Shown: positions 10,582 to 27,630 of the stretch, piece by piece
Layout: every line of letters starts with the position of its first letter
Numbering within the stretch: position 1 is the stretch's first letter
NCBI GenBank assembly: GCA_016209155.1
Contig: JACQWU010000022.1
Coordinates: 1-40,814 of the forward strand
Source: Candidatus Desantisbacteria bacterium
Lineage (GTDB): Bacteria; JACRDZ01
Length of the DNA stretch: 40,814 bases
Direction of reading: 5' to 3'
Program-made: the position numbers and the translations under genes
Notes under the pieces: generated by a model
The model's input: only the letters and a program-made list of their open reading frames with translations
Told to the model about the DNA's origin: nothing
Databases searched by the model: none

Positions 10582-13500
10582 GTAAACAAAGTTTAGACCT
10601 GAAAAAAATTCTTGAAATGGTGAAAAACAAACAAATAGCACCAAAAGAGGGATTTAAGTTAATCAAGCAGGTTCAACAGGGGATATCACAGGCAATAGAA
10701 GTTGCTGGTGATTTGGAGAACTCTGCTTCTCTCTATTATCAAATGCAATGGGAAAAGTCTGAAGCACCTGCAGAAAGTGAAAAAAAGAATCCATTGGCGA
10801 GTGTTTTGCTTTTTGCCACTGATGAGGGGGTATTTAAAACAATACAAAATCTAAAAGATTATGAAGGGAATGAATCATCAGTGATAATGGTTAAATATGG
10901 TGAATCTTATAGGGCTTTTGGTAAGCTGATATATGAAATTAATCCAGAAAGCCGTGAGGATTACTATCACCTCATCAAGGAACTGAGGAAAGAGGAATTG
11001 CTGCCGAGTAAAGTTATTTACCTCCGATCAGGAAAATCTTTATCCAATAATGAAGAAATCCTAATATCTCAGTTCAGGCAAGATGTATATCCAGTACTGT
11101 TTCTGAGCCAAGCAATTCTCGATGAGGGGATAAGAGATAAAATCAAATTTCTTTACATCTATTTATGTCAGAGCGATGAGCTGTACCCTCAGTATGCAGC
11201 AATGGGTGGATTTGCAAGGTCTGTTCACCTTGAGAACCAGAGGTTCTTTTTCAAGGTGATTGGTGTACGGAGTATGTCAAACTCCAATCAAATTGCCAAT
11301 ATAATAGCGTATGAATTTGAAACTGAAGATGCTGAGGCTGAGGTCTTATATGACGGAGATAACCGGTTAATAAGGCGTTGGAAGGAGATTGAAACAGAAA
11401 ATGACAAGGGAAAATCAGTACAATTGAGAGACAGGGGAGTGTATGTGATCACAGGCGGAACAGGCGGACTTGGACTGATCTTTGCTGAATATTTAGCCAA
11501 AAATGTGAGGCCGAGATTGGTGCTGGTAGGACGTTCCGAACTAACTGCGGACAAACAGAAAAGGATAAAAGATATAGAGGCATTGGGGGCTGACATAGAG
11601 TACATCAGGGCTGATGTATCCAAAAGAGAAGAGGTTGAAGAACTTATAGCCAAGATAAAGTCTCGCTTTATGGAAGTTCATGGCGTAATTCACGCTGCAG
11701 GAGTGATCAATGATTCTTTTGTAGTGAAGAAAACAAAGGAAGAGATGGATGAAGTCCTGTCTCCGAAGGTGTACGGAACAATCTGGTTAGATGAGTTGAC
11801 AAAAGAAGAGCCATTGGACTTTTTTATAACGTTTTCCTCAATAGCGGGGATAATAGGTAATATAGGGCAATGTGATTATGCATATGCAAACAGCTTTATG
11901 AACTATTATGCTGAAAAGAGGGCGGCATTAGGACGGCACGGCAAAACTCTTTCCATTATATGGCCATTGTGGAAAAAGGGGGGAATGAGAATTGATGAAC
12001 AGACAGAGAAATTATTGAGCGACACAATGGGAATAAGATTGATGGATCGAGAAACTGGACTGATGGCGATTGAAAAGGGGTTAAGATTGGGAGGAAGCCA
12101 TCTTATTCCCTTGGTAGGCGATACAGATAAAATAAGGCTTAGATTTGATAATATAGAAAGTCTGTCTTTATTAAAGACAGATGCCATGCAAACTTTGACG
12201 CAAACAGATGAGGTGAGTTTAACGAAAAATCTTCAAAAGGATATGTTGAGTCTCGTGTCGGATATTTTGAAGATCGATGAGAAAAGAATCAATCTTGATA
12301 GTAGCCTGACTAAGTTTGGATTTGACTCCATAACTTTTACAGAACTGGCAAATAAGATCAACGATAAGTATCACATTACCATTATGCCCACGGTGTTCTT
12401 TGAGCATTCATCTTTGAGATCAATAGTTTCATATTTGATCAAAGAACAAAGAGACAGTATGATTTATTACTACAAGAGCAAAATGAGCGTACCGATCAAT
12501 GCGTTAGCTGACAGTTTGATACAGAAAAAAGCTGATGAGAAGATAGCGGAGACGGAAACGATAGTCCGATCTCGGTATAATAAAAGTCACGAGGAGTTCA
12601 GAGAGCAAGGAAGGACGGCTATAAAAGATAATATAGCAATCGTTGGGATGAGTGGAGTAATGCCACAATCAGAGGATCTTGAGGAATTTTGGAGACATTT
12701 AGAGGAAGGTAGAGATATGATCACTCAAATTCCTATAGACCGGTGGGACTGGAAGGAATACTATGGCGACCCGATAACAGAGGCTAACAAGACCAACATA
12801 AAGTGGGGCGGATTCATGAAAGAGGTGGATAAATTTGATCCCCTGTTTTTTAATATCTCACCTTATGAAGCAGAACTGATGGATCCTCAAGAAAGAATTA
12901 TCATTGAATTGATATGGAAGACCATAGAGGATTCCGGATACAGGGCATTGGATTTCTCAGGTACAAAGACCGGACTTTTCATTGGGATATCTAGTGCAGA
13001 CTACCGAGAGTTAATGATAGAGCAACACATGTCAATGGGAGTAAGTCAATCAATAATAGCCAATCGAGTATCTTACTGCTTTAATTTTCGAGGTCCGAGT
13101 GAACCTGTGGATACAGCCTGCTCAAGCTCACTAGTCGCAATTCATCGTGCTGTAGAAGCGATCCAAAATGGCCATTGTGATACTGCGTTTGCAGGAGGGA
13201 TCAATGTTATTGCGAGTCCGAATTTGTATGTTGTGTTCAGCAGAATGGGTGCTCTCTCTGACAATGGCAAGTGTAAGACCTTTGACAAAAATGCGAACGG
13301 GTATGTCAGAGGAGAGGGAGCAGGGATTCTCATGCTCAAGTCTTTGAGCAGGGCTGAGGCAGATGGAGATTATATTTACGGCGTAATTAAGGGGACAGCG
13401 GTAAACCATGGAGGCCGTGCCAGCTTTTTTACCGCACCTAATCCCAATGCCCAGGCAGAGGTGCTGATAGAAGCTTATGAGAGAGCAGGAGTAGACCCTT

Positions 13501-16500
13501 CGACATTGAGTTACATAGAGACGCATGGAACAGGGACAAGTCTTGGGGATCCTATTGAAATTGAGGGTTTAAAGAAGGCATTCAAGGAGCTCTATAAGAG
13601 ATGTAATAAACCTATATCGAAAAAGGCGCACTGTGGATTAGGATCAGTAAAGACTAACATAGGTCATTTGGAAGCAGCATCAGGTGTGGCAGGTGTGATC
13701 AAGGTATTATTAGCTATGAAGCACCAGCGGCTCCCAGGATTGCTTAATTTTAAGGAGATGAATCCATATATTCAGTTAGAAGGCAGTCCTTTTTATATCA
13801 TAACCGAGTCAATGGCATGGGGTCGCTTAAGGGATGAAGAGAAAATGCCTATACCGCTTAGGGCAGGAGTGAGCTCTTTTGGCATGGGAGGGGTTAATGC
13901 TCACGTAGTGCTTGAGGAGTATAGGGACAATAATAAACAAATCATAGCAGAAAATAAGGAGACCCAGGTGTTTGTGCTATCGGCAAAGAATGAAAAGCAG
14001 TTGAAGGAGTATGCCGAGAAGATGGTAAAATTTTTTGACAGGGCATTTGATAAAAAAGAGGTTACCATTGCTAATATCGCCTATACGCTCCAGGTGGGCA
14101 GGGAGGCAATGGAAGAACGGCTTGCACTCATAGTGTCAAGCATACAGGATTTGAAAGAAAAGTTATCTCAATATGCTCAGGGAGCAGAGCATATTGAAAA
14201 TGTATATAGAGGAAATGTAAAAGCGAATAAGGGTATATCAGAACTTTTGGATGGAGGAGAGGAAGAGCATGCATTCATCAGGAGATTAATAGCTGTCAAA
14301 AGGATTAGCAAACTTGCGCAGATGTGGGTGTCAGGAGTAAATATCGAATGGAAGTTACTTCATGAATTGCAAACTACACGCCGTATCGCTCTACCGACTT
14401 ATCCATTTGCAAGAGAGAAGTGCTGGATACCAAAAATAGAACAAGCAGCTGTTATCGCAAGCAACAAACAAGTGCAAGTAACTGAAAGTAGTAACCTGAT
14501 ACATAATAACTATGTCAAAAATTTTGAGCAGGAACAGAGTATAATACCTCATCAAATAGTTAAAAATACGAATTTGGAGAATACAGAAGTACTATTTACT
14601 GCTACCTCAGAGTATTTTAAGAATGTATTTTCATCTGCATTAAAAATAGATTCGAAGATGATTGATATTGAAACAGATTTTCAGGAATATGGACTTGACT
14701 CAATTATGGTTAACCAGCTCAATAAAATCTTAGAAGGAAAGTTTGGCAAATTATCTCCAACATTGCTTTTCACACACAAGAATATAAAAACCTTAACCGG
14801 ATATTTTGTGAAGAACTACATTGAAAAATTGAGATATATCATTGGAGTGTCCCAGAATAATAATAAAGTTAATCTTACAACATCAAAACAGGAGAGACAA
14901 ATAGGAGAGGTCATCAAGGAGACAAGCAATAAGGATTCGTATAATGAAGAAATCGCAATCATCGGTCTAAGCGGGCAATTTCCCTTAGCCAGTAATGTAG
15001 ATGAGCTCTGGGAGAATTTAAAAGCAGGAAGAGATTGCATTACTGAGGTTCCCAAAGAGAGATGGGATTATAAAGAGTTTTATGATCCGGAAAAAAGGAA
15101 AATAGGGAAAACATGCTGCAAGTGGGGCGGATTCCTTAAAGAAGTGGACAAGTTCGATCCCGCTTTTTTCAATATAAATCCCGAAGAAGCTGTGATAATG
15201 GATCCGCAGGAGAGGTTGTTTTTACAAACCGTATGGGCATGCCTTGAGGACGCAGGATATACGCGTACAATGTTAAAAGATAATAATACAAAAGACATAG
15301 GTGCGGCTGTAGGGGTATTCGTAGGAGCGAGTTTTCATTCCTATCCGCTGCACGTTGCGGAACAATGGAAAAAAGGTGTATTAGTCCCATTACATACGCA
15401 AACATTTTCCATAGCAAATCGCATATCGTATTTCTTTAATCTCAGCGGTCCGAGCGTCTCAATGGACACTGCGTGTTCTTCATCGCTTTATGCCCTCCAT
15501 CTTGCCTGTGAAAGCATTAGAAGAGGAGAATGCAGGTTTGCAATAACCGGAGGAGTGAATCTTCCATTGCATCCCAGTCAATACATAACTCTATCTGCGG
15601 TAGGCATGCTTTCCGCTCAGGGTCATTGCCGATCATTTGGTGAAGGCGCGGATGGGATGGTTCCCGGAGAAGGTGTAGATGCAGTACTTCTGAAACCTCT
15701 TAAAGATGCAATAAGAGATCGAGATCATATCTATGCTGTAATTAAGGGAACTGCTGCAAATAATGACGGCAAAACCTATGGTTATACTACCCCGAATCCG
15801 ATTGCCCAGTCTGAAGTCATCAGGAAGGCCTTAACGAAATCGAATGTGGATACTAAAACAATAAGTTATATTGAGGCGCATGGAACCGGCATTGTCTTGA
15901 GCGATACGATAGAGATAGAAGCATTGAGCAACGCATACGAATCTTATTCAAAAGAGAGGAACTATCGCGCGATCGGATCCATAAAATCCAATATTGGCCA
16001 CATAGAAGCACCGGGTGGAATAGCTGGCTTAATTAAAGTGCTGCTACAGATGAAATATAAACTATTAGTACCTTCGATTCATTCTGAAAAATTGAACTCA
16101 CATATAAATTTTGAGAACACACCTTTTTATGTTCAACAGAAACTGGAAGAATGGAAACAACCGGTTATAGAGGAAAATGGAAAAGTTAAAATATATCCGA
16201 GACGCGCAGGCCTGAGTTCGTTCGGCGCAGGTGGAGTAAACGTACATATTATAGTAGAAGAGTATCCTTCTTTTGGCGCAGACCATAGTTGCACGGGCAA
16301 GGATAATCTAATTCCTTCAGCTTCATCACTAATTAATGCTGTAATGAATGAGGTAAGGCCATTATTGATTCAGTCGTTTAATAAAATCGACATAAACCTC
16401 TATGAAAAAGGATATAAGGATTTGAATAAGTGGACCCGTCTTTTGCTGTTAAACGCTTTCCAAAATATGGGCCTATTTAATAAATCCGAAGAAAGATATC

Positions 16501-18014
16501 AAAGACGTGAATTGGTGGAGAGGCTGAATATTCTAGTAAAGTACCGGCAACTGTTCGATGGTCTCCTTACTATATTAACGCAAGGCAGATTTCTTAAAAA
16601 AGACGGTGATGTTATAGCGTGCACCTCAAGAGTAGAAAGTGAGGAAACAAAGAAGCATCTTATGAATTTGGAACATACCAAGGAAGATCTAATACAAAAA
16701 TATCCATTATTAAAATCATACTTGTCTCTGCTCTGGATATGCATAAGCAATTATCCGGATATCCTGACCGGGAAAAAATTGGCAACAACTGTTATGTTTC
16801 CTAACTCTTCTATGGAATTGGTGGAAGGTATATATAAAGCTTTCAGCAAAGAATTTTCAATGGTCGCAAAATGCATAGGTTCATATGTTAAAAGGCGATG
16901 TGCGGAGTTGGGCGAGGGGGAAAAGATAAACATTCTCGAAATAGGAGCAGGAACAGGGGGAACCACGGTTTCAGTATTGGAAGCAATAGAAGAATATAGT
17001 GATAAAATACGGTATGTCTATACGGATGTATCAATAGGCTTTTTGTTTCATGGAGAGAATTTGTACGGTAAAAAATATGATTTTATGGAATTTAAATTAT
17101 TAGACATTGAAAAGAGTGCATTTGAACAGGGCATTAAGCAAGCCGAATATGACATTATTATCGGTGCTAATGTTTTCCATGCAACCAAAAAAATGGATAA
17201 CACATTACTGAATGTAAAAGAGTTGCTGAAGACAAATGGGCTATTGATTATGGAGGAAACAACTTCCAAAGTAGACTTTTTATTATTGACATTCGGCTTA
17301 TTAGATGGATGGTGGCTATATGAAGATAAAGAAAACCGTATTGAGGAATCTCCACTACTCAATATAGATAGTTGGAAGAGGTTGTTAGAAAAAATTAATT
17401 TTCAGAATGTTGGCTTTTTAGGTTATCAAGGCTCGATGCAACATATGATAGTGGCAGAAAATAGCTGTGTTCAGAGAATAGAATATCCTCTTTGTGAGTT
17501 TAAGGCACTAAACCATATAATCCTGCCCATATCAGCAATGAATAAGCAAAGCCTCTACTCTAATGCCAAACAGCTGAAGGATTTTTTGCGAAAGAACAAA
17601 GAACAAAGAAACTTTATATTGCTACTTGAGGATATTGCTTATACTTTGCAAGTTGGGAGAGAGCCTATGCGGCACAGGCTGGCCTTTACTGGCAAGACTC
17701 ATGATGAAATAATCGAGAAAATAGATATGTATCTTAATACTCCCCTCAAGAAAGTTGATATGTTTGAATTAAATAATGTTTCTCTGGACGAAATTGATTT
17801 AAAAGAAAAGACCTTTATTGGTAAAAAGGTTGATGCAGAGCAAATGAATAACCTTATTCAGCAAGGGGCAATGGACAAGTTGGCTGATCTATGGGTACAA
17901 GGAATGGAGGTTGATTGGAACTCACTTTACATGGGATACAAACCATCACGTGTCTCATTGCCTACTTATTCCTTTCTCAAGGAACGATATTGGGTATCTG
18001 ATAAAAATGGTTAA
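10578..18014 (+). CDS. trans-AT polyketide synthase: KR-ACP-KS3-ACP-KS4-cMT-(KS flanking subdomain); no AT, no terminal ACP, no TE
   Basis: GTG 10578 overlaps the upstream TGA (GTGA). The N-terminus is a docking-like helix (LDLKKILEMVKNKQIAPKEG). Domains, with approximate nt positions:
- KR2, ~10730-11990 (GGTGGLG near 11454)
- ACP2, ~12230-12440 (GFDSI, Ser 12327-12329)
- KS3, ~12630-13925 (Cys 13119-13121, THGTGT, NIGH)
- flanking subdomain, ~13960-14430 (LPTYPFAREKCWIP)
- ACP3, ~14600-14820 (GLDSI, Ser 14700-14702)
- KS4, ~14947-16265 (Cys 15474-15476, AHGTGIVLSD, NIGH)
- C-MT2, ~16330-17465 (ILEIGAGTGGT, GANVFHAT)
- flanking-type subdomain, ~17500-18000 (EDIAYTLQVGREPMRHRLAF ... LPTYSFLKERYWVS). 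Confidence 0.9.
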   Translation: MSKQSLDLKKILEMVKNKQIAPKEGFKLIKQVQQGISQAIEVAGDLENSASLYYQMQWEKSEAPAESEKKNPLASVLLFATDEGVFKTIQNLKDYEGNESSVIMVKYGESYRAFGKLIYEINPESREDYYHLIKELRKEELLPSKVIYLRSGKSLSNNEEILISQFRQDVYPVLFLSQAILDEGIRDKIKFLYIYLCQSDELYPQYAAMGGFARSVHLENQRFFFKVIGVRSMSNSNQIANIIAYEFETEDAEAEVLYDGDNRLIRRWKEIETENDKGKSVQLRDRGVYVITGGTGGLGLIFAEYLAKNVRPRLVLVGRSELTADKQKRIKDIEALGADIEYIRADVSKREEVEELIAKIKSRFMEVHGVIHAAGVINDSFVVKKTKEEMDEVLSPKVYGTIWLDELTKEEPLDFFITFSSIAGIIGNIGQCDYAYANSFMNYYAEKRAALGRHGKTLSIIWPLWKKGGMRIDEQTEKLLSDTMGIRLMDRETGLMAIEKGLRLGGSHLIPLVGDTDKIRLRFDNIESLSLLKTDAMQTLTQTDEVSLTKNLQKDMLSLVSDILKIDEKRINLDSSLTKFGFDSITFTELANKINDKYHITIMPTVFFEHSSLRSIVSYLIKEQRDSMIYYYKSKMSVPINALADSLIQKKADEKIAETETIVRSRYNKSHEEFREQGRTAIKDNIAIVGMSGVMPQSEDLEEFWRHLEEGRDMITQIPIDRWDWKEYYGDPITEANKTNIKWGGFMKEVDKFDPLFFNISPYEAELMDPQERIIIELIWKTIEDSGYRALDFSGTKTGLFIGISSADYRELMIEQHMSMGVSQSIIANRVSYCFNFRGPSEPVDTACSSSLVAIHRAVEAIQNGHCDTAFAGGINVIASPNLYVVFSRMGALSDNGKCKTFDKNANGYVRGEGAGILMLKSLSRAEADGDYIYGVIKGTAVNHGGRASFFTAPNPNAQAEVLIEAYERAGVDPSTLSYIETHGTGTSLGDPIEIEGLKKAFKELYKRCNKPISKKAHCGLGSVKTNIGHLEAASGVAGVIKVLLAMKHQRLPGLLNFKEMNPYIQLEGSPFYIITESMAWGRLRDEEKMPIPLRAGVSSFGMGGVNAHVVLEEYRDNNKQIIAENKETQVFVLSAKNEKQLKEYAEKMVKFFDRAFDKKEVTIANIAYTLQVGREAMEERLALIVSSIQDLKEKLSQYAQGAEHIENVYRGNVKANKGISELLDGGEEEHAFIRRLIAVKRISKLAQMWVSGVNIEWKLLHELQTTRRIALPTYPFAREKCWIPKIEQAAVIASNKQVQVTESSNLIHNNYVKNFEQEQSIIPHQIVKNTNLENTEVLFTATSEYFKNVFSSALKIDSKMIDIETDFQEYGLDSIMVNQLNKILEGKFGKLSPTLLFTHKNIKTLTGYFVKNYIEKLRYIIGVSQNNNKVNLTTSKQERQIGEVIKETSNKDSYNEEIAIIGLSGQFPLASNVDELWENLKAGRDCITEVPKERWDYKEFYDPEKRKIGKTCCKWGGFLKEVDKFDPAFFNINPEEAVIMDPQERLFLQTVWACLEDAGYTRTMLKDNNTKDIGAAVGVFVGASFHSYPLHVAEQWKKGVLVPLHTQTFSIANRISYFFNLSGPSVSMDTACSSSLYALHLACESIRRGECRFAITGGVNLPLHPSQYITLSAVGMLSAQGHCRSFGEGADGMVPGEGVDAVLLKPLKDAIRDRDHIYAVIKGTAANNDGKTYGYTTPNPIAQSEVIRKALTKSNVDTKTISYIEAHGTGIVLSDTIEIEALSNAYESYSKERNYRAIGSIKSNIGHIEAPGGIAGLIKVLLQMKYKLLVPSIHSEKLNSHINFENTPFYVQQKLEEWKQPVIEENGKVKIYPRRAGLSSFGAGGVNVHIIVEEYPSFGADHSCTGKDNLIPSASSLINAVMNEVRPLLIQSFNKIDINLYEKGYKDLNKWTRLLLLNAFQNMGLFNKSEERYQRRELVERLNILVKYRQLFDGLLTILTQGRFLKKDGDVIACTSRVESEETKKHLMNLEHTKEDLIQKYPLLKSYLSLLWICISNYPDILTGKKLATTVMFPNSSMELVEGIYKAFSKEFSMVAKCIGSYVKRRCAELGEGEKINILEIGAGTGGTTVSVLEAIEEYSDKIRYVYTDVSIGFLFHGENLYGKKYDFMEFKLLDIEKSAFEQGIKQAEYDIIIGANVFHATKKMDNTLLNVKELLKTNGLLIMEETTSKVDFLLLTFGLLDGWWLYEDKENRIEESPLLNIDSWKRLLEKINFQNVGFLGYQGSMQHMIVAENSCVQRIEYPLCEFKALNHIILPISAMNKQSLYSNAKQLKDFLRKNKEQRNFILLLEDIAYTLQVGREPMRHRLAFTGKTHDEIIEKIDMYLNTPLKKVDMFELNNVSLDEIDLKEKTFIGKKVDAEQMNNLIQQGAMDKLADLWVQGMEVDWNSLYMGYKPSRVSLPTYSFLKERYWVSDKNG

Positions 18015-18047: not shown

Positions 18048-19589
18048 ATGACTCAATGGTGCGGAAATTTTACAGAGTATGTTTGGCGTCTTTTAAATGA
18101 AAAAAAAATGTTAACCAACAAAGCATTCCAATTTTCTGAAAGAATAATAACGTATGAAGAACTTTTTGAGAATGTAAATAAAGCTGGTAACCTCTTAAAG
18201 GGAAAAGGGATAAAACCTGGAGATCGTGTTATGCTGATAATGCAGGACTCTGTCTCTCTTGTAAATGCTTTCCTTGGGGCAATCCGAATAGGTGCAATTC
18301 CTATTGTGCTTAATACTATGCTTTTCTCTAAAGATTATCCTTATTACTTTTCAGATAGTCAGGCTCGTTTATGCATTATTGATGAAGATTTTTTAGAAAA
18401 AATTGATGAATGCAAAAACCAGTGCCCTGTTATAAATACAGGTGAATTCGACAGGCTGACAGCAAAACAACCTGCATACACTGAGTTTTATAATTGCGAT
18501 CTTAAAACTCCTGCATTCTGGCAATATTCATCAGGAACCACTGGAAAGCCAAAGGCCGTTATTCATACACATTTCGGACCTGTTGAAATTTATAATACAT
18601 ATGCAACAGAGATTCTAAGCATTTCATCCACTGACAAGGTGCTTAGCACAGCACGAATGTTTTTCGGATATGGTCTTGGAGGCAGCCTCTTTTTCCCTAT
18701 TATGGCAGGCGCTATGACAATATTGTTCTCCGGTCGCATAAATCCCGAAAATTTTATTAAGGTTATTAATAGTTATAAGCCAACAATTTTTTTCTCAGTC
18801 CCATCGTTTTACAAGCAATTGTTGGATTATGAAGGGGGTGCTTATTCTCTGAATACATCGTCTCTTAGACTGGCAATATCAGCCGGAGAATCATTGCCAT
18901 CAGTAATATATTATAGATGGTTTGAGCGTACCGGTGTTGAACTGCTCGACGGCATTGGTACAACGGAAGCGCTTCATATTTTTATGTCAAATCGAGCGGG
19001 TGAAGTCAAACCCGGGAGTTGTGGTAAGCCGCTTAAGGGTGTTCAAGTTAAGCTTGTAGATGAGTCAGAAAATATCATACCAGGGTGCAAGCTGGGAAGG
19101 CTTCTTATCCATCACCCCGGAATCGCTGTTGGTTATTATAACCAGCAGGAGCTGAACTCAAAAGTATTTAGAGATGGGTGGCTAGATACCGGCGACATTT
19201 TCCGTGTAGATCAAGAAGGCCATTTTTGGCATATGGGCCGGTTTAATGATATGTTCAAAGTAAAGGCTATGTGGGTATCACCGATAGAAGTTGAAGAGGT
19301 ACTGTTACGTCATAAAATGATCTCTGATTGTGCAGTTGTCGGTGTTCCAAATAAACAAGGATTAACGGAAATTGTAGCATATATCGTGTTAAAAGATGGT
19401 ATAAAGCCAGAAGATTTTGTTGCAAATTCACAAATTCATAATCATTGTGAAGATATATTGGCGAGATATAAGATCCCCACAAGCTACAATTTTATAGAAA
19501 CAATCCCAAAAACTGCAACTGGCAAGAAAAAACGCTATGAGCTTCGGGAGAAATTTATTGAAACTTCATTGGGGAGGAATGAAATATGA
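18048..19589 (+). CDS. AMP-dependent aryl-acid:CoA ligase, benzoate-CoA ligase (BadA/BclA)-like
   Basis: AAGGAGGG at 18037-18044 precedes ATG 18048. Adenylate-forming motifs are present (WQYSSGTTGKPKAVIHTH, FFGYGLGGSLFFP, DGIGTTEALHIFMSNRAGEVKPGSCGKP, GDIFRVDQEGHFWHMGRFNDMFKV, PKTATGKKKR). The pattern matches my recollection of the benzoate/4-hydroxybenzoate-CoA ligase subfamily. Confidence 0.8.
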   Translation: MTQWCGNFTEYVWRLLNEKKMLTNKAFQFSERIITYEELFENVNKAGNLLKGKGIKPGDRVMLIMQDSVSLVNAFLGAIRIGAIPIVLNTMLFSKDYPYYFSDSQARLCIIDEDFLEKIDECKNQCPVINTGEFDRLTAKQPAYTEFYNCDLKTPAFWQYSSGTTGKPKAVIHTHFGPVEIYNTYATEILSISSTDKVLSTARMFFGYGLGGSLFFPIMAGAMTILFSGRINPENFIKVINSYKPTIFFSVPSFYKQLLDYEGGAYSLNTSSLRLAISAGESLPSVIYYRWFERTGVELLDGIGTTEALHIFMSNRAGEVKPGSCGKPLKGVQVKLVDESENIIPGCKLGRLLIHHPGIAVGYYNQQELNSKVFRDGWLDTGDIFRVDQEGHFWHMGRFNDMFKVKAMWVSPIEVEEVLLRHKMISDCAVVGVPNKQGLTEIVAYIVLKDGIKPEDFVANSQIHNHCEDILARYKIPTSYNFIETIPKTATGKKKRYELREKFIETSLGRNEI

Positions 19590-20623
19590 AAGTCACGCAC
19601 ATATTTACATATAACGAAGGTCCCTGGTACTCGGCTTTGGAAGCGATGCATCTTTTGGGACAAAATAATATAATTACTGAAAAGGCTCTCAAAGCAACCG
19701 AATATGAAAAGCGCAGATTATTTGCCATAAATGACATTAAAAAAACACCACTTGATGACGCTACATTTTTTCATATTCTTACTAAAAGCTTTTTAACTAT
19801 GGCAAAATCTTTGGTTGATCAATATCTAAAATGGAAAGGCAATAATAAAAATATTAAATCCATTACTATTATAAACAGCCAGGGAATACCAAAACCTGGC
19901 TATGATGAAATGCTGAAAGAATTAATGAATATAAATAACATCCCAATTTATCATATCACGGGAATGAATTGCGCAAGTACTATTCTTGCCTTACAGCATT
20001 TGCATCATTTACGTAAAAAAGACCCTTTACGAAAAGAAGAAATCGATTTAATTTTTTCAATTGAGGTACCATCTATCATGATGCGCCTCAAAAGATCTAT
20101 ACTACAAATGCCTTATGTTCACTATGATGGAGTTGTATCCGATGGTGCCGGATTGGTTGTAATTGAATCTTCAGAAAGTAGCTTAGGTCTGGAAATTGTC
20201 GGACATCGTAATTTTCTCTATCCCAAAGCTCAAGAGAACTTAATGTCAAGAGCAATAGGGAATCAAGTAGAACATGGGCTAACCACAGAATCTATTGAAG
20301 ATATAAGACATGTCATCAAGGATGCTATCAATTATACCTTGTCAGATCTTAATCTGAATATGGAAAAGATCAATCACTGGATTTTACATCCTGGAGGAGT
20401 AAAAGTCATTAATACAGTATCTAAGGAACTCGGTTTAAAAGATGAGACTATGAAATATGCTCTTGATACTATACGCAGCCAAGGGAATTCCATGAGCAAT
20501 TTGATTCTCTATGTGTTGCAAAAATATTTCGAATCGAATACCTTTAGCAATAAAGATATTGCAATGCTAATCGGGATCGCTCCTGGTTTTGAAATTCAAA
20601 CGGTGACAGTACGCTATTGTTAA
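19586..20623 (+). CDS. Type III polyketide synthase-like (chalcone/stilbene synthase fold) condensing enzyme, divergent
   Basis: ATG 19586 overlaps the ligase stop (ATGA), and GGGGAGG at 19571-19577 serves as RBS. A Cys-His-Asn triad sits in CHS-like contexts: GMNCAST (Cys codon 19970-19972), WILHPGGVKVI (His 20387-20389) and QGNSMSNLILYVL (Asn 20486-20488). The HPGG context points to type III PKS rather than FabH, which has HQAN. Confidence 0.7.
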   Translation: MKVTHIFTYNEGPWYSALEAMHLLGQNNIITEKALKATEYEKRRLFAINDIKKTPLDDATFFHILTKSFLTMAKSLVDQYLKWKGNNKNIKSITIINSQGIPKPGYDEMLKELMNINNIPIYHITGMNCASTILALQHLHHLRKKDPLRKEEIDLIFSIEVPSIMMRLKRSILQMPYVHYDGVVSDGAGLVVIESSESSLGLEIVGHRNFLYPKAQENLMSRAIGNQVEHGLTTESIEDIRHVIKDAINYTLSDLNLNMEKINHWILHPGGVKVINTVSKELGLKDETMKYALDTIRSQGNSMSNLILYVLQKYFESNTFSNKDIAMLIGIAPGFEIQTVTVRYC

Positions 20624-20639
20624 GGAAAGGGGGTGAATT

Positions 20640-21056
20640 ATGAATAATTTAAGTATTATTTGGTCCGCAGATTTTGATATCCGGAAAGGTTATCAAAAAA
20701 ATAAAGAACACGAACATATTGTATCGTTTATTCATGATCAATTGGTAAAACATGCTATTGAACTGAAAAAAATTGGTTTTCTGGGCATATTGTATGGCAT
20801 GAATCATGTGAGTGTTCGTGTTCCGTCCTTAACAGAACTAGCGTTTGGGCGTCTTTATAAAAAACACAAAGACAGGTATTTGTGTATATCTCTTCAACGA
20901 TTGTATTTAGTTGATGATTATCAGACTGGAATTGATAAATTAGCTGATGCTTTTCGTGCATTCGAAGCTAATTTGGGAATTATTTGTTGGTATGGAGAGG
21001 ATAAATTCGAAATTATGCTCGTCTCTTCTTCTGCCAATGATCTGTCTAAATCATAA
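20640..21056 (+). CDS. Hypothetical 138-aa protein, no recognisable motif, in the same operon as the type III PKS-like gene
   Basis: AAGGGGG lies 6-12 nt before ATG 20640, which is 16 nt after the previous stop on the same strand. I recognise no family. Confidence 0.5.
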   Translation: MNNLSIIWSADFDIRKGYQKNKEHEHIVSFIHDQLVKHAIELKKIGFLGILYGMNHVSVRVPSLTELAFGRLYKKHKDRYLCISLQRLYLVDDYQTGIDKLADAFRAFEANLGIICWYGEDKFEIMLVSSSANDLSKS

Positions 21057-21109: not shown

Positions 21110-21799
21110 ATGATAGAATTAAAAGAAGTGAGTAAGACGTATACACAAGGTATAAAAAATATACCTGTTCTTCACAATATTTCGATTAGCATCAAGTTGG
21201 GTGAATTTGTCTCTATTATGGGTCCCAGCGGATCCGGCAAAAGCACACTTCTGAATCTCATCGGTGGAATCGACCAGCCTACATCTGGAGAGATATTTAT
21301 TAATAGCAAACCGCTTCATGGGATTAAGGATGATGAACTCACTTTAATCAGACGCAAACATGTGGGATATATTTTTCAGTTTTTTAACCTTCTTCCCATT
21401 CTTTCAGCTATGGAAAATGTTGGTCTTCCGCTTCTCCTCGAAGGTATACCTTTATCAAAAATAAAATCAAAGGTAGAAACGCTATTGCAAAAAGTTGGAT
21501 TGGAAGGCCGTATGGAACATCGGCCCGAGCAGCTTTCAGGAGGAGAAATGCAGCGTGTAGCGATAGCGCGCTCTCTAATTACAGATCCCGAAGTACTCCT
21601 TGCGGACGAACCAACAGGTAATTTGGATTCGCGTTCAAGTGAAGAGATATTCAATATGCTTAAAAAACTAAATGCCGAAGGCCAAACTATTATAATGGTA
21701 ACACATGATTCTAAAGCTGCTGATTGCGGTACACGGCTTATCACGATCAAAGACGGATTTCTGGCTTCCGATAAAAAGCTAAAGGAGGTTAGGGCATGA
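21110..21799 (+). CDS. ABC transporter ATP-binding protein, LolD/MacB-type
   Basis: Walker A is GPSGSGKST, the signature is LSGGEMQRVAIAR, and Walker B is LLADEPTGNLD, followed by the H-loop VTHD. The FNLLP...ENV motif is typical of the LolD/MacB clade. Confidence 0.9.
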   Translation: MIELKEVSKTYTQGIKNIPVLHNISISIKLGEFVSIMGPSGSGKSTLLNLIGGIDQPTSGEIFINSKPLHGIKDDELTLIRRKHVGYIFQFFNLLPILSAMENVGLPLLLEGIPLSKIKSKVETLLQKVGLEGRMEHRPEQLSGGEMQRVAIARSLITDPEVLLADEPTGNLDSRSSEEIFNMLKKLNAEGQTIIMVTHDSKAADCGTRLITIKDGFLASDKKLKEVRA

Positions 21800-24384
21800 G
21801 TATTTTAAATTTTTTTCGTTACATTAGCCTTAGACATATACGATTTCAAAAAACACAATCGATTGTTGTTTTGCTCAGTATCTGTCTAGGTATTGCAACA
21901 ATAGTCTCAATAACCATTGTAAATAGAAGCGTTCTATATTCATATGAAGATACATTTAATAAAATGTTGGGCCGCTCCAGTTTACAGATCTCAGGTCCCG
22001 AAACAGGATTTCCCGAGAATCTTGTAGATAAGGTTTTGAAAGTTCCCGGAGTGGAATATGCTGCACCAGTAATCGAAACTCAGGGGATACTTATCGGAGC
22101 AAAAGAACATTCTATTATGATCCTGGGTGTGGATGTGCTTCAGGATAATCAAATTCGAGATTACAGCATTTCAGGTGAAAGCGCGGATATACCAGATCCT
22201 CTTTTATTCCTCGCAAAACCTGGTTCTATTCTAATACCGCGCAGTTTGGCAGAATCTGAAAAAATAGAAATAGATCAGGATGTGCAGATACAAACAGTCT
22301 ACGGTATACAGAAATTTCGTGTTCGCGGACTTCTTAACCCGGAGGGACCTGCAAAGGCAGTGGGTGGTAACATAGCAGTAATGGACATCTTTGCGGCACA
22401 AATGGCTTTTGGAAAAGAAGCCCGTATCGATCGAATTGATATCGGTCTGTATCGTGGGACTGATATAGAAGAAGTGCAACACCATTTAGAGAAAACTATT
22501 CCTCAGGGATATAAAATTACGACTCCGGCAGGCAGGACTAAGCAGGTACAAAAAATTCTTTCCAGCATGCAGAGCAATATAGATCTTATCGGTTATATTT
22601 CGATCATTGTTGGCATGTATCTTATTTACAATGCAGTTTCAATCACTGTTGTACGCCGTAAAAAAGAAATAGGTATACTCCGTGCTCTTGGGGCTACGCG
22701 AAGTCAAATCATAAAAACATTTCTCGGAGAGCACATTATAATTGCTACTGTAGCCTCAGCATTAGGTGTAGCATTGGGGATTCTTTTTGCAAAAGCCGCG
22801 GTCGGCGCTGTTGGAGAGATTATATCCAGTATGTACATGAGGACATCAGTCTCTGAAATCAAAATCTATTGGGCTGATATTTTCTCAGGTTTTGCAGCTG
22901 GAATTCTTGCAACCCTGATTGCATCATTGATTCCTGCATTTTCAACCGCCAATATAACACCAATTTTAGCTATACGATCAGTTCCATATTCGGAAGAGAA
23001 AATGCTTACTGCCAGAACTGTCAGGATGGTGTCTATATTACTCGTATTTCTCTCTATAGTTCTTCTAATCTTCTATAAAGCTACAAAATTTTTTCCTGTA
23101 TTTCACAATAAAAGTATAATATTTTTATCCGTTACTGCGATACTGGTTGGAATTTCACTCTCAACGACCGATTTTCTCAGATGGGTACTTACTTTTTTTC
23201 AGCGTTTCATTTTACCCTTGTTTAGCGGTTCTCCCAGACTTGCCGGCCTAAATTTGCAGAAAAATATCTCCCGGAATGCTGTAGCCGTAGCTGCTGTGTT
23301 TTACAGTATTGCAATATTTGTGAGCTCAGCAGGCTTTATGTATAGCATTAAAGAATCTATACTCTCGTATACTGATTCCGTTGTGCGAGGTGATATCCTT
23401 GTAACTTCAGGACATCCACTTTCTGTAGGTTCTCAGAATATTCCTATGCCAGTTGAGTTAGGAAAAGAAATAGAGAAAATTCCCGGAGTGCTATCAGCAG
23501 ATCCCTTTCGCAAAACATATATTGACTATAGCGGTAAACGGGTTGTTCTTTTGACCGTGGATGTAGCACGAAGACTTGAATACAGTCCGTTTATGTTTGC
23601 CCAGGGAACACATGACGAGATGGTAAAACTTCTGCCACACAACGATGCTGCAGTAGTAAGCGAAGGTTTTGCTTCACATTTTAATGTCGTACCAGGAGAT
23701 ACAATTACTTTGTCAACACCGCAAGGTCCGGTACCCTTCCATGTAGTTGCAATAATTGTTGATTATATGTCAGATGTGGGGTCTGTGCTGGTAGATATCG
23801 ATACATATCAGCGCCATTGGGGTGATATGCTTGCAGAGACCTTTTCAGTGCGTGTGAAACCAGGGGAGAGCATAAATACTGTACAAGAAGCTATTATGAA
23901 GAAATTCGGAGCTAATCGAAAATTATTTGTTCTCTCAGGTCGTGAATTTAAGGAAGAGAGCCGTAAGTTAATCGATCAGACCTTTATCATGCACTATGCA
24001 GTAAACATCATAAGCATGATTATTGCTTGCTTTGGTATTATTGTTGCTCTGCTTGCATCAGTGCTCGAACGAACACGTGAGATAGGAATCCTGCGTTCTA
24101 TAGGTATGCTGCGCTCCCAAGTATCTCGAGTGGTAATGCTTGAATCAGTGATCCTGGGCATTAGTGGAGGGGTGCTTGGCTCTCTCACAGGAGTTCTTCT
24201 GGGATGGATAAGCCTGGATGGTTTTTATCGGGTAGATTACGGTGCAAGCATTGCTTATTACATACCTTATATGTATGTCATCTGGGCTATAATAATCTCG
24301 GCAGGGCTTGCAACACTTGCAGGACTCTATCCAGCACACCGAGCTGCGAAAACAAATATTGTGGAGGCATTGAACTATGAATAA
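21796..24384 (+). CDS. ABC transporter permease with two FtsX/MacB-type domains (862 aa)
   Basis: ATG 21796 overlaps the ATPase stop (ATGA). Two copies of the FtsX-type block (RRKKEIGILRALGATRSQI and ERTREIGILRSIGMLRSQV) are each followed by hydrophobic helices, with large soluble loops between them. Confidence 0.85.
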   Translation: MSILNFFRYISLRHIRFQKTQSIVVLLSICLGIATIVSITIVNRSVLYSYEDTFNKMLGRSSLQISGPETGFPENLVDKVLKVPGVEYAAPVIETQGILIGAKEHSIMILGVDVLQDNQIRDYSISGESADIPDPLLFLAKPGSILIPRSLAESEKIEIDQDVQIQTVYGIQKFRVRGLLNPEGPAKAVGGNIAVMDIFAAQMAFGKEARIDRIDIGLYRGTDIEEVQHHLEKTIPQGYKITTPAGRTKQVQKILSSMQSNIDLIGYISIIVGMYLIYNAVSITVVRRKKEIGILRALGATRSQIIKTFLGEHIIIATVASALGVALGILFAKAAVGAVGEIISSMYMRTSVSEIKIYWADIFSGFAAGILATLIASLIPAFSTANITPILAIRSVPYSEEKMLTARTVRMVSILLVFLSIVLLIFYKATKFFPVFHNKSIIFLSVTAILVGISLSTTDFLRWVLTFFQRFILPLFSGSPRLAGLNLQKNISRNAVAVAAVFYSIAIFVSSAGFMYSIKESILSYTDSVVRGDILVTSGHPLSVGSQNIPMPVELGKEIEKIPGVLSADPFRKTYIDYSGKRVVLLTVDVARRLEYSPFMFAQGTHDEMVKLLPHNDAAVVSEGFASHFNVVPGDTITLSTPQGPVPFHVVAIIVDYMSDVGSVLVDIDTYQRHWGDMLAETFSVRVKPGESINTVQEAIMKKFGANRKLFVLSGREFKEESRKLIDQTFIMHYAVNIISMIIACFGIIVALLASVLERTREIGILRSIGMLRSQVSRVVMLESVILGISGGVLGSLTGVLLGWISLDGFYRVDYGASIAYYIPYMYVIWAIIISAGLATLAGLYPAHRAAKTNIVEALNYE

Positions 24385-25231
24385 ATTAACTGTCGAAAAA
24401 GTGTTGTCAGGAGTTACTAATAATCAATCATGTTTTCTATCAGTGAGCTGGGGGGGCGTTATAGCTGTTACTATAGCTATGATGATACTTACTCTTGTAT
24501 CCGTCGCATATTCCATGAGCGGCCGGGAGATATATGAAAATGTGCATGCTGTAAGATCAAAGGCACTTGACCGAAAAACAGAGATCACTATGGTTCTATT
24601 TGATAAAGGCGGTGGCAAACGTACACGCACCCTAACAGAATTCAGCAAAAAAGTAGATACACAGGCTTACAAGATTCTTGTGGTATTTAATTCCCCAGCA
24701 GACCTTAAAGATGTCGGGTTTTTGATCCATGCTCGTACCTTTGCTGACCGGGACATCTGGGCATATTTTCCTGAATATAAACGCATCCGGCGCATTCCTA
24801 CGAATTCCCAGGATGATTCATTCTTCGGATCGGATTTTTCATATGACGACTTCAGTGGCCCGCCGAATCTCGAAGATTATTCATTTAAAATCTTATCAGA
24901 AGAAGTGTTAGACGGTAAATCGTGTTATGTTGTCGAAGTAATACCCAAAGTCAAGAGAAAGTACACTCGGTATATTGCATGGATAGCGAAAGACCTCTGG
25001 ATACATATGAAGATCGAATATTATCAGGAGGATGAGCTTTATCGTGAAGGAATATTTAAGGATATCAAAATCATAGACGGCATACCTACGCCCTTTAAGG
25101 CGAATATGGTGAACAAAAAGAGCAATCATGCAACAGAACTCACAATCGAAAATATTAAGTACAATACAAACCATCCGGATGGTCTCTTTACCCAGAGATC
25201 TTTGGAAGGCGGAGAAGTTAGCGAAAAATGA
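24377..25231 (+). CDS. LolA-like outer-membrane lipoprotein-sorting family protein
   Basis: It overlaps the permease stop by 8 nt. It has a hydrophobic N-terminal segment and the motif SQDDSFFGSDFSYDDF, which I recognise as the hallmark of the LolA_like family often found beside FtsX-type ABC permeases. Confidence 0.7.
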   Translation: MNKLTVEKVLSGVTNNQSCFLSVSWGGVIAVTIAMMILTLVSVAYSMSGREIYENVHAVRSKALDRKTEITMVLFDKGGGKRTRTLTEFSKKVDTQAYKILVVFNSPADLKDVGFLIHARTFADRDIWAYFPEYKRIRRIPTNSQDDSFFGSDFSYDDFSGPPNLEDYSFKILSEEVLDGKSCYVVEVIPKVKRKYTRYIAWIAKDLWIHMKIEYYQEDELYREGIFKDIKIIDGIPTPFKANMVNKKSNHATELTIENIKYNTNHPDGLFTQRSLEGGEVSEK

Positions 25232-26598
25232 AGAAATTTTCTTTTGTAATTATCTTTGTCTTTCTCATATTTTTCTCTGTATCAGTTGTATATTCCGATG
25301 ATATGGTTTTGGTTACAGGCAGAATGCTCAGTTCTGCACCGGTAAGGCTCAATGATCAGAGCACAGAAGAGTATCCGAGTGTTCTTGGAAGAATAAAATT
25401 AAAAGTATCAAAATCATCATTACATTTCCTTTCATTGATGGAAGGTGGAGTGGATGGGACTATTCGGTCGCCGAGGAGAGACCATTACTTATTTAAAAAC
25501 TATCACGATGTGTATCAAGATAATACACCCTACCTGGAATTTAAGGAGCTTTACCTTACGAAATCTTATAAAAGTTTCGATCTTAAAGTAGGCATTCAGC
25601 GATTTTCATGGGGAAGACTCGACGATTATCCGGTTAATGATCTCTTGAATCCTTGGGATTATACACGTTTCATTTTGAAATCGCTCGAAGACCGCAAGAT
25701 CGGTGTGCCTTCTATTTCAGCAAATGTGAGCAAAGAGGATTGGGCATATCAGGCGGTATGGGTTCCAATTTTTGTGCCCTACCGTCTTGCCAAGCCGAAT
25801 GAGCGGTGGTCGGGTATTCCCGTTGGAACAGTCTTTTCAAAAATTAATGATGCAGAAGTGCTCTCAGGGGAGCCTGATTTGGCGTCTAATAAGCTCGAAA
25901 ACAGTTCTTTTGGATTTCGCATGCAGCGGATGGGAGAAATAGAATGGGCGATTAATCTCTTCTACGGCTTTGATCCGCGTCCTGTATTCAAAACCACGGA
26001 ACTGAGCATCTCGGAATTTCAGGGGAAACTTCTCATCGATCCTGGAATCGTTCCATCGTTCCATAAGATCGCATCTGTGGGAACGGATGCTGCCATGGTA
26101 AAAGGTGATTGGAGTCTAAGAGCAGAATCAGCATATACATTTAATCGTTTTTTCAATATTAGGTCCGATCTTTGGGGATACCCTCAATCGCTTATAGCAG
26201 GAGTAACCCCTTTAAACCCAATTGAGATAAAGCGAGATACCCTTGATTATGGAATAGCGGCGGATTACAACCTTTTTGAGGATGGACTGCTGACCATGCA
26301 GCTGCAGCAGACCTTAATTTTTAAGAAACCCGATACATTGTACAATAAAACAATCGAAACCATACTATGGGCCAATCTTAAAGTCGGCTGGATGAACCAG
26401 AAGCTTGAAACAAATTTCAATTTAGCATCCAATCCCGAACACGGTGCAAATATGGTCAAGGCGAATGCATATTATGTATTTGATGATTCGTGGAAAACCG
26501 GTATTACCGCTATATTATTGGATGGGCCACCACAATCTCTGTGGGGTATGTATTCAAAGAATGATCAGATAGGGATGGAAGTTGTATATTCATGGTAG
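25228..26598 (+). CDS. Outer-membrane beta-barrel protein (DUF1302-like)
   Basis: ATG overlaps the upstream stop (ATGA). It has a classical signal peptide ([25 protein letters not shown]), alternating beta-strand-like sequence, and a C-terminal aromatic residue (..VVYSW) typical of OMPs. The family name is from memory only. Confidence 0.55.
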   Translation: MKKFSFVIIFVFLIFFSVSVVYSDDMVLVTGRMLSSAPVRLNDQSTEEYPSVLGRIKLKVSKSSLHFLSLMEGGVDGTIRSPRRDHYLFKNYHDVYQDNTPYLEFKELYLTKSYKSFDLKVGIQRFSWGRLDDYPVNDLLNPWDYTRFILKSLEDRKIGVPSISANVSKEDWAYQAVWVPIFVPYRLAKPNERWSGIPVGTVFSKINDAEVLSGEPDLASNKLENSSFGFRMQRMGEIEWAINLFYGFDPRPVFKTTELSISEFQGKLLIDPGIVPSFHKIASVGTDAAMVKGDWSLRAESAYTFNRFFNIRSDLWGYPQSLIAGVTPLNPIEIKRDTLDYGIAADYNLFEDGLLTMQLQQTLIFKKPDTLYNKTIETILWANLKVGWMNQKLETNFNLASNPEHGANMVKANAYYVFDDSWKTGITAILLDGPPQSLWGMYSKNDQIGMEVVYSW

Positions 26599-26649: not shown

Positions 26650-27630
26650 ATGTCTAAAAATATTGTTTTTATGTTCTCTGGGCAAGGAGCCCAATATTTT
26701 CATATGGGTAAAGAATTATTTATTAATAATGAAACTTTCAGAAAATGGATGTTGTTATTAGATAAACAGATAGAGGATATTATTGATATTTCAATTATTG
26801 AAATAATGTATAGTAATGTCAAAAAGAAGAGTGATAAATTTTCTCGTTTATTATATTCGCATCCTGCTATTTTTATGATTGAATATTCATTGGCTCAGTG
26901 TTTATTGGATGAAGGGATTATCCCTGATTATGTTTTTGGATCAAGCATGGGGGAATTCGCTGCTTGTGCTATTGCAGATGCATTGGATTTGGAAAATATA
27001 ATTTTGGCTATAATAGAGCAAGCTTTTACTTTGGAACAAAAATGCCCTGAAGGGTCTCTGATTACTATTCTTGGGGATCAATCAATGTATGAAAATATTT
27101 TGATGATTAAAGAAAATAGTGAGCTTGCCGGTATCAATTTTAAATCACATTTTGTAATTTCAACCGATTTGGAAAGAAAAAGCATTATAGAAAAATTTTT
27201 AAAAGATAATAATATTGAATACTATATTTCACCTGTATCCCGGGCATTTCATTCTTCGTTAATTGAACCTGCAAAAGACACATATATATCATTTCTTAAA
27301 AAACAATTTTATAAGTCTCCTAAGATTCCCATTATCTCATCGACCTATGCTGATTTTATTTATAATATTCATGAAACTTATTTATGGGATATTATTCGAA
27401 AGCCTGTTTTAATAAATGAAACTATAAAGAAAATAGAATCAGTTCATGAATGTATATATTTGGATTTGGGACCAACAGGTACAATGGCAAATTTTATAAA
27501 ATATAATTTGGAAGCGAAATCCAATTCGATTTTTTTCCCAATTATAACACCTTTTTCTAATGATCTTGCGAATTTTTATAAATTAAAAGATTGGTTTGTA
27601 AAAAACAATAAAATAAAACATCTTATGTAA
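26650..27630 (+). CDS. Discrete acyltransferase-fold protein (trans-AT or acylhydrolase type), atypical active site GSSMG
   Basis: Motifs are FMFSGQGAQY, GSSMGEF (nucleophile elbow) and SRAFHSS. The residue 25 positions after the Ser, which aligns with FabD Arg117, is Gln (..IIEQAF..). Confidence 0.8.
   Translation: MSKNIVFMFSGQGAQYFHMGKELFINNETFRKWMLLLDKQIEDIIDISIIEIMYSNVKKKSDKFSRLLYSHPAIFMIEYSLAQCLLDEGIIPDYVFGSSMGEFAACAIADALDLENIILAIIEQAFTLEQKCPEGSLITILGDQSMYENILMIKENSELAGINFKSHFVISTDLERKSIIEKFLKDNNIEYYISPVSRAFHSSLIEPAKDTYISFLKKQFYKSPKIPIISSTYADFIYNIHETYLWDIIRKPVLINETIKKIESVHECIYLDLGPTGTMANFIKYNLEAKSNSIFFPIITPFSNDLANFYKLKDWFVKNNKIKHLM

Follow-up and report, generated by a model that had tools for sequence, protein, structure and literature searches.

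An aryl-CoA ligase gene, a gene for a divergent enzyme of the chalcone synthase (CHS) fold and a 138-aa open reading frame (ORF) lie back to back inside a trans-acyltransferase (trans-AT) polyketide synthase (PKS) cluster of a Candidatus Desantisbacteria bacterium (assembly GCA_016209155.1, contig JACQWU010000022.1, positions 1 to 40,814 of the forward strand; this whole stretch of 40,814 nt is hereafter the window), and the question that the locus raises is what such a trio does in the midst of a modular assembly line. A first-pass annotation, made from the sequence alone, had offered two readings: that (a) ligase and type III PKS-like enzyme build an aryl-primed oligoketide serving as starter or side unit, or that (b) the type III PKS-like enzyme takes the chain from the megasynthase and releases it as a pyrone or resorcinol. 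The analysis presented here indicates that the 138-aa ORF accompanies the CHS-like gene in every lineage whose downstream DNA is available, that the gene upstream of the pair commonly encodes an acid-activating enzyme, and that this comparative context favours reading (a), with reading (b) being the less likely of the two.

The cassette and its three proteins

All three genes lie on the forward strand. The ligase gene (18048..19589, 513 aa; benzoate-CoA-ligase family by TIGR02262 and PDB matches) ends in an ATGA overlap of its stop codon with the start codon of the CHS-like gene (19586..20623, 345 aa; a deep-branching type III PKS-like condensing enzyme by its Chal_sti_synt_C match and its residues Cys129, His268 and Asn301), and a spacer of 16 nt separates the CHS-like gene from the 138-aa ORF (20640..21056; a small partner protein by its co-occurrence with the CHS-like gene and its AlphaFold2 model). 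ORFs, overlap and spacer are exactly where the first-pass annotation had placed them, and the triad codons that it had named (19970, 20387 and 20486) encode residues C129, H268 and N301 of the CHS-like protein. Each of the three ORFs is preceded by a Shine-Dalgarno-like purine run, and the three genes stand within one co-directional run that extends at least from 757 to 28514. In 17500-21500, terminator-like and promoter-like matches do not exceed their frequency in shuffled sequence, and the gaps between the cassette genes contain none.

The CHS-like protein matches Pfam through its C-terminal domain only, with Chal_sti_synt_C (PF02797) at 50.2 bits against a cut-off of 27 and ACP_syn_III_C at 36 bits; the N-terminal models PF00195, PF08392 and PF08545 (ACP_syn_III) do not match it. 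PF00195 and PF08392 are matched by 38 of 42 aligned sequences, the window protein being among those that they miss. The catalytic triad is retained: C129, H268 and N301 are invariant in the CHS-like family and align with the Cys, His and Asn columns (Cys, HPGG, GN(M)SS) of benzalacetone synthase and CHS, and at least 90% of the 42 relatives in the alignment keep them. The earlier description of a divergent CHS-fold protein with an intact Cys/His/Asn triad thus holds after alignment.

Both sequence and structure comparisons place the protein nearest to type III PKSs. The best NCBIfam model is that of the type III PKS DpgA (62.9 bits, under its cut-off), and the FabH models TIGR00747 and PRK09352 are likewise under their cut-offs, at 27.1 bits (292) and 32.8 bits (249), respectively. 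A profile of the family matched 131 PDB sequences, the top 60 of which are all type III PKSs; CylI is the best match (E 3.5e-22), scoring about 12 bits more than the plant enzymes over an alignment confined to the C-terminal half, and benzalacetone synthase is the best full-length match (E 2e-18, over nearly the full length). With an AlphaFold model of moderate confidence (predicted local distance difference test, pLDDT, 65.6) as query, Foldseek ranked CylI first (E 2.8e-17), followed by PKS11, PKS18 and ArsC, with FabH appearing from rank 18. In a neighbour-joining tree built from Poisson distances with type III PKSs and FabH-like proteins, the CHS-like clade is monophyletic (support 100/100). 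Tree, models and PDB matches taken together group the protein with type III PKSs; clustering with FabH/KAS III, which the first-pass annotation had named as refuting its assignment, was not seen. The window protein is 50% identical to its own family, 20% identical to type III PKSs and 14% identical to FabH-like proteins. We conclude that the CHS-like protein, as judged from sequence, is a relative of type III PKSs and not a FabH, and a deep outlier with a remodelled N-terminal half.

The active-site region differs from that of ordinary type III PKSs at two positions. The column of the gatekeeper Phe215 (F-G/A/S-D-G motif) holds Val184 in the window protein (V184-S185-D-G, with Ser185 aligned with Gly216 in the hidden Markov model (HMM) alignment) and Val or Ile in the family, whereas Phe stands there in 105 of the 122 nearest full-length relatives. 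The column of CHS Ser338 holds an invariant Met in the family (Met303), which may narrow the active-site cavity.

The clade is tiny, comprising about 8 lineages in 1.8-5.8 billion proteins. An exhaustive HMMER search of 1.84 billion representatives returned the family at 619 to 391 bits, then a distant sister (P0016) at 156 bits and then ordinary type III PKSs at about 109 bits. A word-indexed search of 5.8 billion proteins returned 5 relatives of the CHS-like protein, and a scan of 185,579 species genomes returned 1, in a metagenome-assembled genome of an uncultured Desulfobacteraceae bacterium, the only relative in a named genome. One candidate with a family-like score (P0013, 427 bits) was rejected as a member: it is a 4,818-aa protein in which 12 ordinary type III PKS units stand in tandem, and their scores had been summed. 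Two variants of the unit alternate along P0013, and its linker is eukaryote-like and of low complexity.

The 138-aa ORF has no match in Pfam, NCBIfam or PDB sequence and profile searches, in line with its earlier description as an ORF of no recognisable family, yet it is more than an unknown ORF. Homologues 31-69% identical to it are encoded in other loci, and one stands directly after the CHS-like gene in every locus with downstream DNA (L001-L004, L006, L007, L008-L010, L017, L012/L013, L014/L015 and L021). Its family numbers 5 other clusters in the 5.8 billion proteins, and an ordinary type III PKS locus (L018) is without it. We conclude that the 138-aa ORF is a real, non-incidental gene and the obligate companion of the CHS-like gene. 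We infer that its product is a dedicated partner subunit of the CHS-like enzyme, possibly a scaffold, gate or cyclase, and an obligate partner gene raises doubt that the CHS-like enzyme would be a simple homodimer.

The AlphaFold2 model of the partner (pLDDT 82.7; pTM, predicted template-modelling score, 0.79) has the topology beta-alpha-beta-alpha-beta-alpha-beta-beta, which is that of one half of the thiolase fold. The remote-homology check that had been proposed for this ORF returned weak Foldseek matches (best E 3.8e-4, TM about 0.5): apart from 3 rows for Trm14 methyltransferase, which include the top one, the top 50 rows are all members of the thiolase superfamily (FabH, type III PKSs, thiolases, OleA and ketosynthase (KS)). 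In hhalign, no sequence similarity was found between the partner and the CHS-like family. The predicted fold thus resembles one half of the thiolase fold.

The ligase scores 418.7 bits on TIGR02262, the model for the benzoate-CoA ligase family (cut-off 375.25), over residues 25-501 of 513, and far under the cut-offs of models for fatty-acyl and acetate ligases. Of the solved structures, anthranilate-CoA ligase 4wv3 is nearest to it (368 bits), and the benzoate-CoA ligases 2v7b (324 bits) and 4eat are also close. The first-pass assignment as benzoate-CoA-ligase-like therefore stands, and the grouping with fatty-acyl or acetyl-CoA ligases that would have spoken against it was not seen. The ligase is, on this evidence, predicted to be an aryl-CoA ligase, with benzoate, anthranilate and hydroxybenzoate not distinguishable from sequence. 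An attempt to name its exact acid was given up, and no single acid is named here, because members of the family overlap in their use of benzoate, 2-aminobenzoate, fluorobenzoates and hydroxybenzoates (PMC8388817).

Gene neighbourhoods of the relatives

The pair of CHS-like gene and partner gene occurs in 8 lineages, in DNA of 34-71% GC, and in varied company. In the window it lies beside a trans-AT PKS. In L012 it is directly followed by counterparts of the window's two acyltransferase (AT) genes, AT1 and AT2 (39% and 69% identity); in L001 and L003 it lies beside a type II system of KS, chain-length factor (CLF) and acyl carrier protein (ACP) with ApeI-like dehydratases; and in L008 the ORF directly after it encodes a type I PKS with a KS at its start. 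It lies beside a B12-radical-SAM gene in L007, is followed by a gene for DAHP (3-deoxy-D-arabino-heptulosonate 7-phosphate) synthase in L014/L015, and lies beside FabH-like genes in L021. The eighth lineage, L011, is represented by a 1.4-kb contig from the same sample as L014/L015, which holds the C-terminus of a ligase and a CHS-like gene only; L011 and L014/L015 may be the same lineage. PKS parts (type II, type I KS or AT pair) adjoin the cassette on every contig long enough to judge, and no PKS gene is seen on the contigs of L007 and L011/L015, which extend over a few kb. Recurrence of the trio in PKS-free genomes, which the first-pass annotation had named as a refuting outcome, was accordingly not seen. 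With three types of PKS as neighbours and DNA of such different composition, the cassette behaves as a portable module.

What is constant upstream of the pair is the position of an acid-activating gene rather than its class. An adenylate-forming enzyme is encoded directly upstream and co-directionally in 6 of the 8 lineages, and a divergently transcribed gene for a fatty acyl-AMP ligase (FAAL) lies upstream in a seventh (L008/L009). The upstream enzyme is of the benzoate-CoA-ligase type in the window and in L011, the closest relative, where the ligase and CHS-like genes are again coupled by ATGA and the ligase fragment is 60% identical to the C-terminus of the window ligase. It is of a stand-alone adenylation-domain (A-domain), DltA-like type in L001, L003, L007 and L012; these four are orthologous (53-74% identical to one another) and 22-26% identical to the window ligase. 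The class of the activating enzyme is thus swapped while its position is kept, and on this ground we argue that its product is the substrate of the CHS-like enzyme.

Two further observations concern genes at this upstream position. An agmatinase/arginase-family gene lies directly upstream of the A-domain-type ligase gene in L001 (7267-8247), with equivalents in L003-L005, a hint that cassettes beside type II PKSs may take a guanidino- or amino-acyl starter. Upstream of the pair in L021 (636-2559) are a FabH-like gene with an intact triad and then a FabH-like gene of 295 aa without the Cys; the two may be a second two-protein condensing enzyme in that locus.

Outside the clade, the distant sister P0016 (22% identity; L019 709-2349 / L020 1-2603, GC 68%) overlaps by ATGA with the stop codon of a type I PKS that lacks a thioesterase (TE) and ends in dehydratase (DH)-ACP. 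All that the 195-aa ORF after P0016 has in common with the partner family is a short region around a 'VP' motif, and its homology to the partner is not established (hhalign E 0.28; single-sequence hmmsearch E 0.014, 1.2 bits). In L018 (1-5496), an ordinary type III PKS (24% identity) directly follows a type I PKS ending in an ACP and a type II-TE-like domain (GHSMGA), a CylH/CylI-like arrangement.

The surrounding trans-AT cluster and the role of the cassette

The genes around the cassette are also on the forward strand. At the 5' edge of the window, which cuts the first of them, are genes matching the families of HMG-CoA synthase (HMGS; HMG, hydroxymethylglutaryl) and enoyl-CoA hydratase (ECH), as used in beta-branching (18..1524). 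Two megasynthase genes follow, with domains assigned from Pfam and a motif map: trans-AT PKS protein A (1555..10581) has the order KS1, ketoreductase (KR), methyltransferase (MT), ACP, KS2, DH, and protein B (10578..18014) has the order KR, ACP, KS3, ACP, KS4, with an MT before the KS flanking subdomain and without a terminal ACP or TE. Downstream of the cassette is an export block (21110..26598) of a LolD/MacB-like ATP-binding cassette (ABC) ATPase, a duplicated FtsX permease, a LolA_like protein and a weak DUF1302-like match (Pfam, NCBIfam), in agreement with the export genes that had been noted after the trio. It is followed by two free-standing ATs (26650..28514; 97.8 and 335.2 bits on the FabD model, cut-off 260.9) and, farther on, by a 4'-phosphopantetheinyl transferase (30489..31031; PF01648, 77 bits). 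By these scores the first AT, weak on FabD, is probably an acyl hydrolase and the second is classed as a FabD-like malonyl transferase, and acyl hydrolase and malonyl transferase ATs are commonly paired in trans-AT clusters. The trans-AT assignment draws on four features: no AT domain in the 5,085 aa of megasynthase, RhiE-like KS linkers, the HMGS and ECH genes, and the two discrete ATs.

Two features of the megasynthases call for mention. At 2755-2757, an in-frame TAG stands in place of the Glu in the Y-x-E-x-HGTGT motif of KS1 (ISYT*MHGTGT) and divides the gene for protein A into same-frame ORFs 1555-2757 and 2758-10581. Recoding of this TAG was ruled out, since TAG is an ordinary stop in the window and ends 8 of the 27 other genes; the TAG in KS1 is either a nonsense mutation or an assembly error. 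In protein B (residues about 1895-2300), some 400 aa that include an intact-looking S-adenosylmethionine-dependent MT domain stand between the KS4 core and the flanking-subdomain motifs (AYTLQVGRE ... LPTYSF) at which the protein ends. The KS4 motif itself is atypical (HGTGIVLSD). An end of the form KS-MT-flanking subdomain is the usual site at which modules are split between trans-AT proteins, and the assembly line probably continues on a protein encoded outside the window. An HMM made from the cluster's own ACPs, run against six frames of the window, found the 3 internal ACPs only and no stand-alone ACP; protein B has no ACP beyond residue 1418 and no terminal TE, and no TE was found in the window. 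The first-pass statement that the trio sits where the line ends without an ACP or TE is therefore right in that neither follows the last KS, but protein B ends at a split-module break and the 5' edge of the window falls within the HMGS gene, so that this need not be the true end of the line.

Two observations concern the downstream flank. A truncated ABC ATPase gene (177 aa) abuts a DDE transposase gene (28843-30158), which suggests an insertion-sequence insertion at the cluster edge. Beyond the cluster, toxin-antitoxin-type genes (Unstab_antitox, DUF5615; 35127-35480 and 37888-38247) flank the housekeeping genes aroE and recA (35606-37571).

The hypothesis that we favour, at about an even chance, is that the three genes are one cassette that makes an aromatic-primed building block used by the trans-AT PKS. 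According to this hypothesis, the ligase would convert a benzoate-type aromatic acid to its CoA thioester, the aryl group would be loaded onto Cys129 of the CHS-like protein acting together with its 138-aa partner, the pair would carry out decarboxylative condensation of the aryl group with one or a few malonyl units, the trans-AT PKS would use the resulting aryl-oligoketide either to prime its chain, as an advanced starter, or as an aromatic unit at the side or head of the product, and the product would be handled by the LolA-like and ABC export genes. Gene structure, family assignments, the conserved triad, the strict co-occurrence of the CHS-like and partner genes and the recurrent neighbourhood of an acyl-activating enzyme are shown, whereas the hand-over of substrate, the number of extensions, a complex of the CHS-like protein with its partner and any connection to the PKS are inferred. 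A common denominator of the loci is that the gene just upstream provides an activated acyl thioester, whether by a CoA ligase, by a carrier-loading A-domain or FAAL, or on a PKS ACP, and therefore we propose that the starter of the CHS-like/partner pair comes from that upstream enzyme. Also on the side of this hypothesis are the ATGA coupling of ligase and CHS-like genes both here and in L011, the portability of the cassette across three PKS types and DNA of 34-71% GC, the retained Cys/His/Asn triad and the kinship with type III PKSs, the position of the cassette directly before a KS-first type I PKS ORF in L008, and the lack of a terminal ACP on protein B that could donate a chain. The DAHP synthase gene after the pair in the sample of the closest relative is consistent with a supply of aromatic acid.

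Several points weigh against the aromatic building block. It is a proposal from sequence, and the model of the CHS-like protein, at pLDDT 65.6, does not allow the active-site cavity to be read. In L021 no ligase gene lies in the 2.7 kb of contig upstream of the CHS-like gene, where FabH-like genes stand instead; the P0016 loci have no ligase gene either and show a layout of off-loading type; and the best PDB match of the CHS-like protein, CylI, is a terminator of an assembly line. Release and cyclisation are the usual fate of type III PKS products, and hand-over of a primer needs a retained thioester. Finally, the 5' part of the cluster lies outside the window, and with the in-frame stop in KS1 the pathway may be broken.

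According to reading (b), the CHS-like enzyme would terminate the trans-AT line by taking an ACP-bound chain, adding malonyl units and releasing a resorcinol or pyrone as CylI does for CylH, with the ligase being used elsewhere, for example in priming the line. We regard this as unlikely. It has CylI as its best match by both sequence and structure, the overlap of P0016 with the TE-less PKS, the lack of a TE in the window, and the precedent that CylI terminates a type I PKS by accepting a CylH-tethered substrate (PMC5707447). The CylI match, however, covers the C-terminal half only, at 18-21% identity, and the layout from which CylI works, with the chain coming from the terminal ACP of a TE-less PKS, is absent from the window and present only in the distant sister (L019/L020). 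Protein B ends in KS-MT-flanking subdomain with no ACP after it and none standing alone, at the kind of break after which the line would probably continue elsewhere, and reading (b) leaves unexplained why an acyl-activating gene is conserved directly upstream in most lineages. Readings (a) and (b) would both be true if the pair were a joining enzyme that condenses an aryl-CoA-derived unit head to head with the beta-keto chain of the PKS and so releases that chain, in the manner of curcumin synthase, plant alkylquinolone synthase or PqsBC. We give this a slim chance, and a small one to the claim that the CHS-like protein and the thiolase-half-like protein would be an obligate two-component condensing enzyme, of a kind not described before, which joins an aryl-CoA unit to the trans-AT chain, thereby releasing it. 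A PKS without a TE, a gatekeeper Phe215 changed to Val as it is to Leu in benzalacetone synthase, a ligase nearest, among solved structures, to a PKS-priming anthranilate-CoA ligase, and a two-protein make-up that recalls the PqsB/PqsC heterodimer all point in this direction; the argument is nevertheless one of analogy, no PKS protein ending in an ACP is visible, and no similarity in sequence could be detected between the partner and any condensing enzyme.

Two further explanations were weighed. The trio could be a nested, independent mini-pathway to a small aryl pyrone, resorcinol or quinolone, as a ligase and a type III PKS are self-sufficient in plants and as the contigs of L007 and L011/L015, with no PKS gene in the few kb available, would allow; with PKS parts directly adjacent on every contig that has enough flank, and with the cassette set in one co-directional run, free of terminators, between the megasynthase and the cluster's own ATs, we consider this very unlikely. 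It is highly improbable, in our judgement, that the cassette is a non-functional relic in a decaying cluster: the TAG in the catalytic motif of KS1, in a window where TAG is an ordinary stop, and the truncated ABC gene abutting a transposase would fit decay, but the three cassette ORFs are intact, their catalytic residues are invariant and their ribosome-binding sites are good, and the single G-to-T difference behind the TAG may be an assembly error.

Novelty and comparison with known systems

The first-pass annotation knew of no described trans-AT PKS/type III PKS hybrid in which the type III enzyme releases the chain, and our literature search for a trans-AT/type III PKS hybrid or for the cassette found nothing relevant. 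The parts come from known superfamilies; what is new is their combination, namely a type III PKS clade that branches deeply and whose N-terminal half is remodelled, a thiolase-half-like protein as its obligate partner, an activating enzyme that can be swapped and an association with three types of PKS. Type III PKSs are, to our knowledge, regarded as self-sufficient homodimers, and a clade in which the enzyme's gene always comes with one for its own small partner would represent a new class of condensing-enzyme architecture. If the two-component joining enzyme were real, it would be without precedent both as a trans-AT/type III PKS hybrid and as a type III PKS that needs a dedicated structural partner. 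A remodelled N-terminal half and a missing Phe gatekeeper, combined with interchangeable acid-activating enzymes and three PKS contexts, would give pathway engineering a portable module for starter extension or joining, and the cassette would flag uncharacterised aromatic-polyketide lipids in uncultured Gram-negative bacteria.

Anthranilate-primed condensing systems, PqsA/PqsD/PqsBC and AuaEII/AuaE/AuaCD, resemble the cassette in coupling an anthranilate- or benzoate-type CoA ligase to condensing enzymes of the thiolase fold; the solved anthranilate-CoA ligase 4wv3 is AuaEII, and PqsBC consists of two proteins, one of them an inactive subunit. They differ in that their condensing enzymes are either FabH-like (PqsD, PqsBC) or a type II KS/CLF pair (AuaCD), whereas the window partner has 138 aa, about half a thiolase fold. 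Small non-catalytic or cyclase partners that modulate a type III PKS are known from CHS with chalcone isomerase-like protein (CHIL) and from tetraketide synthase with olivetolic acid cyclase (OAC), and a CHS-CHIL structure (9jl6) is among the partner's Foldseek matches. CHIL, however, has the chalcone-isomerase fold and OAC the DABB fold, whereas the window partner is predicted to be a thiolase-half-like alpha/beta protein and has no sequence relatives outside the cassette.

The plant pairs (4CL with CHS; benzoate-CoA ligase with benzophenone or biphenyl synthase) share with the cassette an aryl-CoA ligase that feeds a Cys/His/Asn condensing enzyme, and benzalacetone synthase also lacks Phe215, having Leu in its place (PDB 3a5s is the L208F back-mutant). 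Unlike the plant enzymes, to which it is about 20% identical, the window protein has an N-terminal domain without a CHS match in Pfam and an obligate extra subunit, and it is bacterial and encoded inside a PKS cluster. In the FAAL/ACP/type III PKS systems for alkylresorcinols, such as Myxococcus FtpA/C/D and Azotobacter ArsA-D, an adenylate-forming enzyme or carrier protein passes an acyl starter to a type III PKS, as the FAAL gene of L008/L009 recalls; these systems, unlike the cassette, use canonical type III PKSs without a partner, and their starters are fatty and not aromatic. The ArsA-D system is cited in PMC5707447.

CylH/CylI, of cylindrocyclophane biosynthesis, is the system whose condensing enzyme matches the CHS-like protein best by sequence and fold. 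It too has a free-standing type III PKS encoded beside a modular PKS, its layout of PKS-ACP followed by type III PKS recurs with the P0016 sister, and L018 is a true CylH/CylI-like locus. It differs in that CylI has low identity to the window protein, with a sequence match restricted to its C-terminal half, works without a partner protein and keeps the usual gatekeeper Phe (FADG). Finally, it is a ligase and not an ACP that is encoded upstream of the CHS-like gene in the window, and the PKS beside it is of the trans-AT type.

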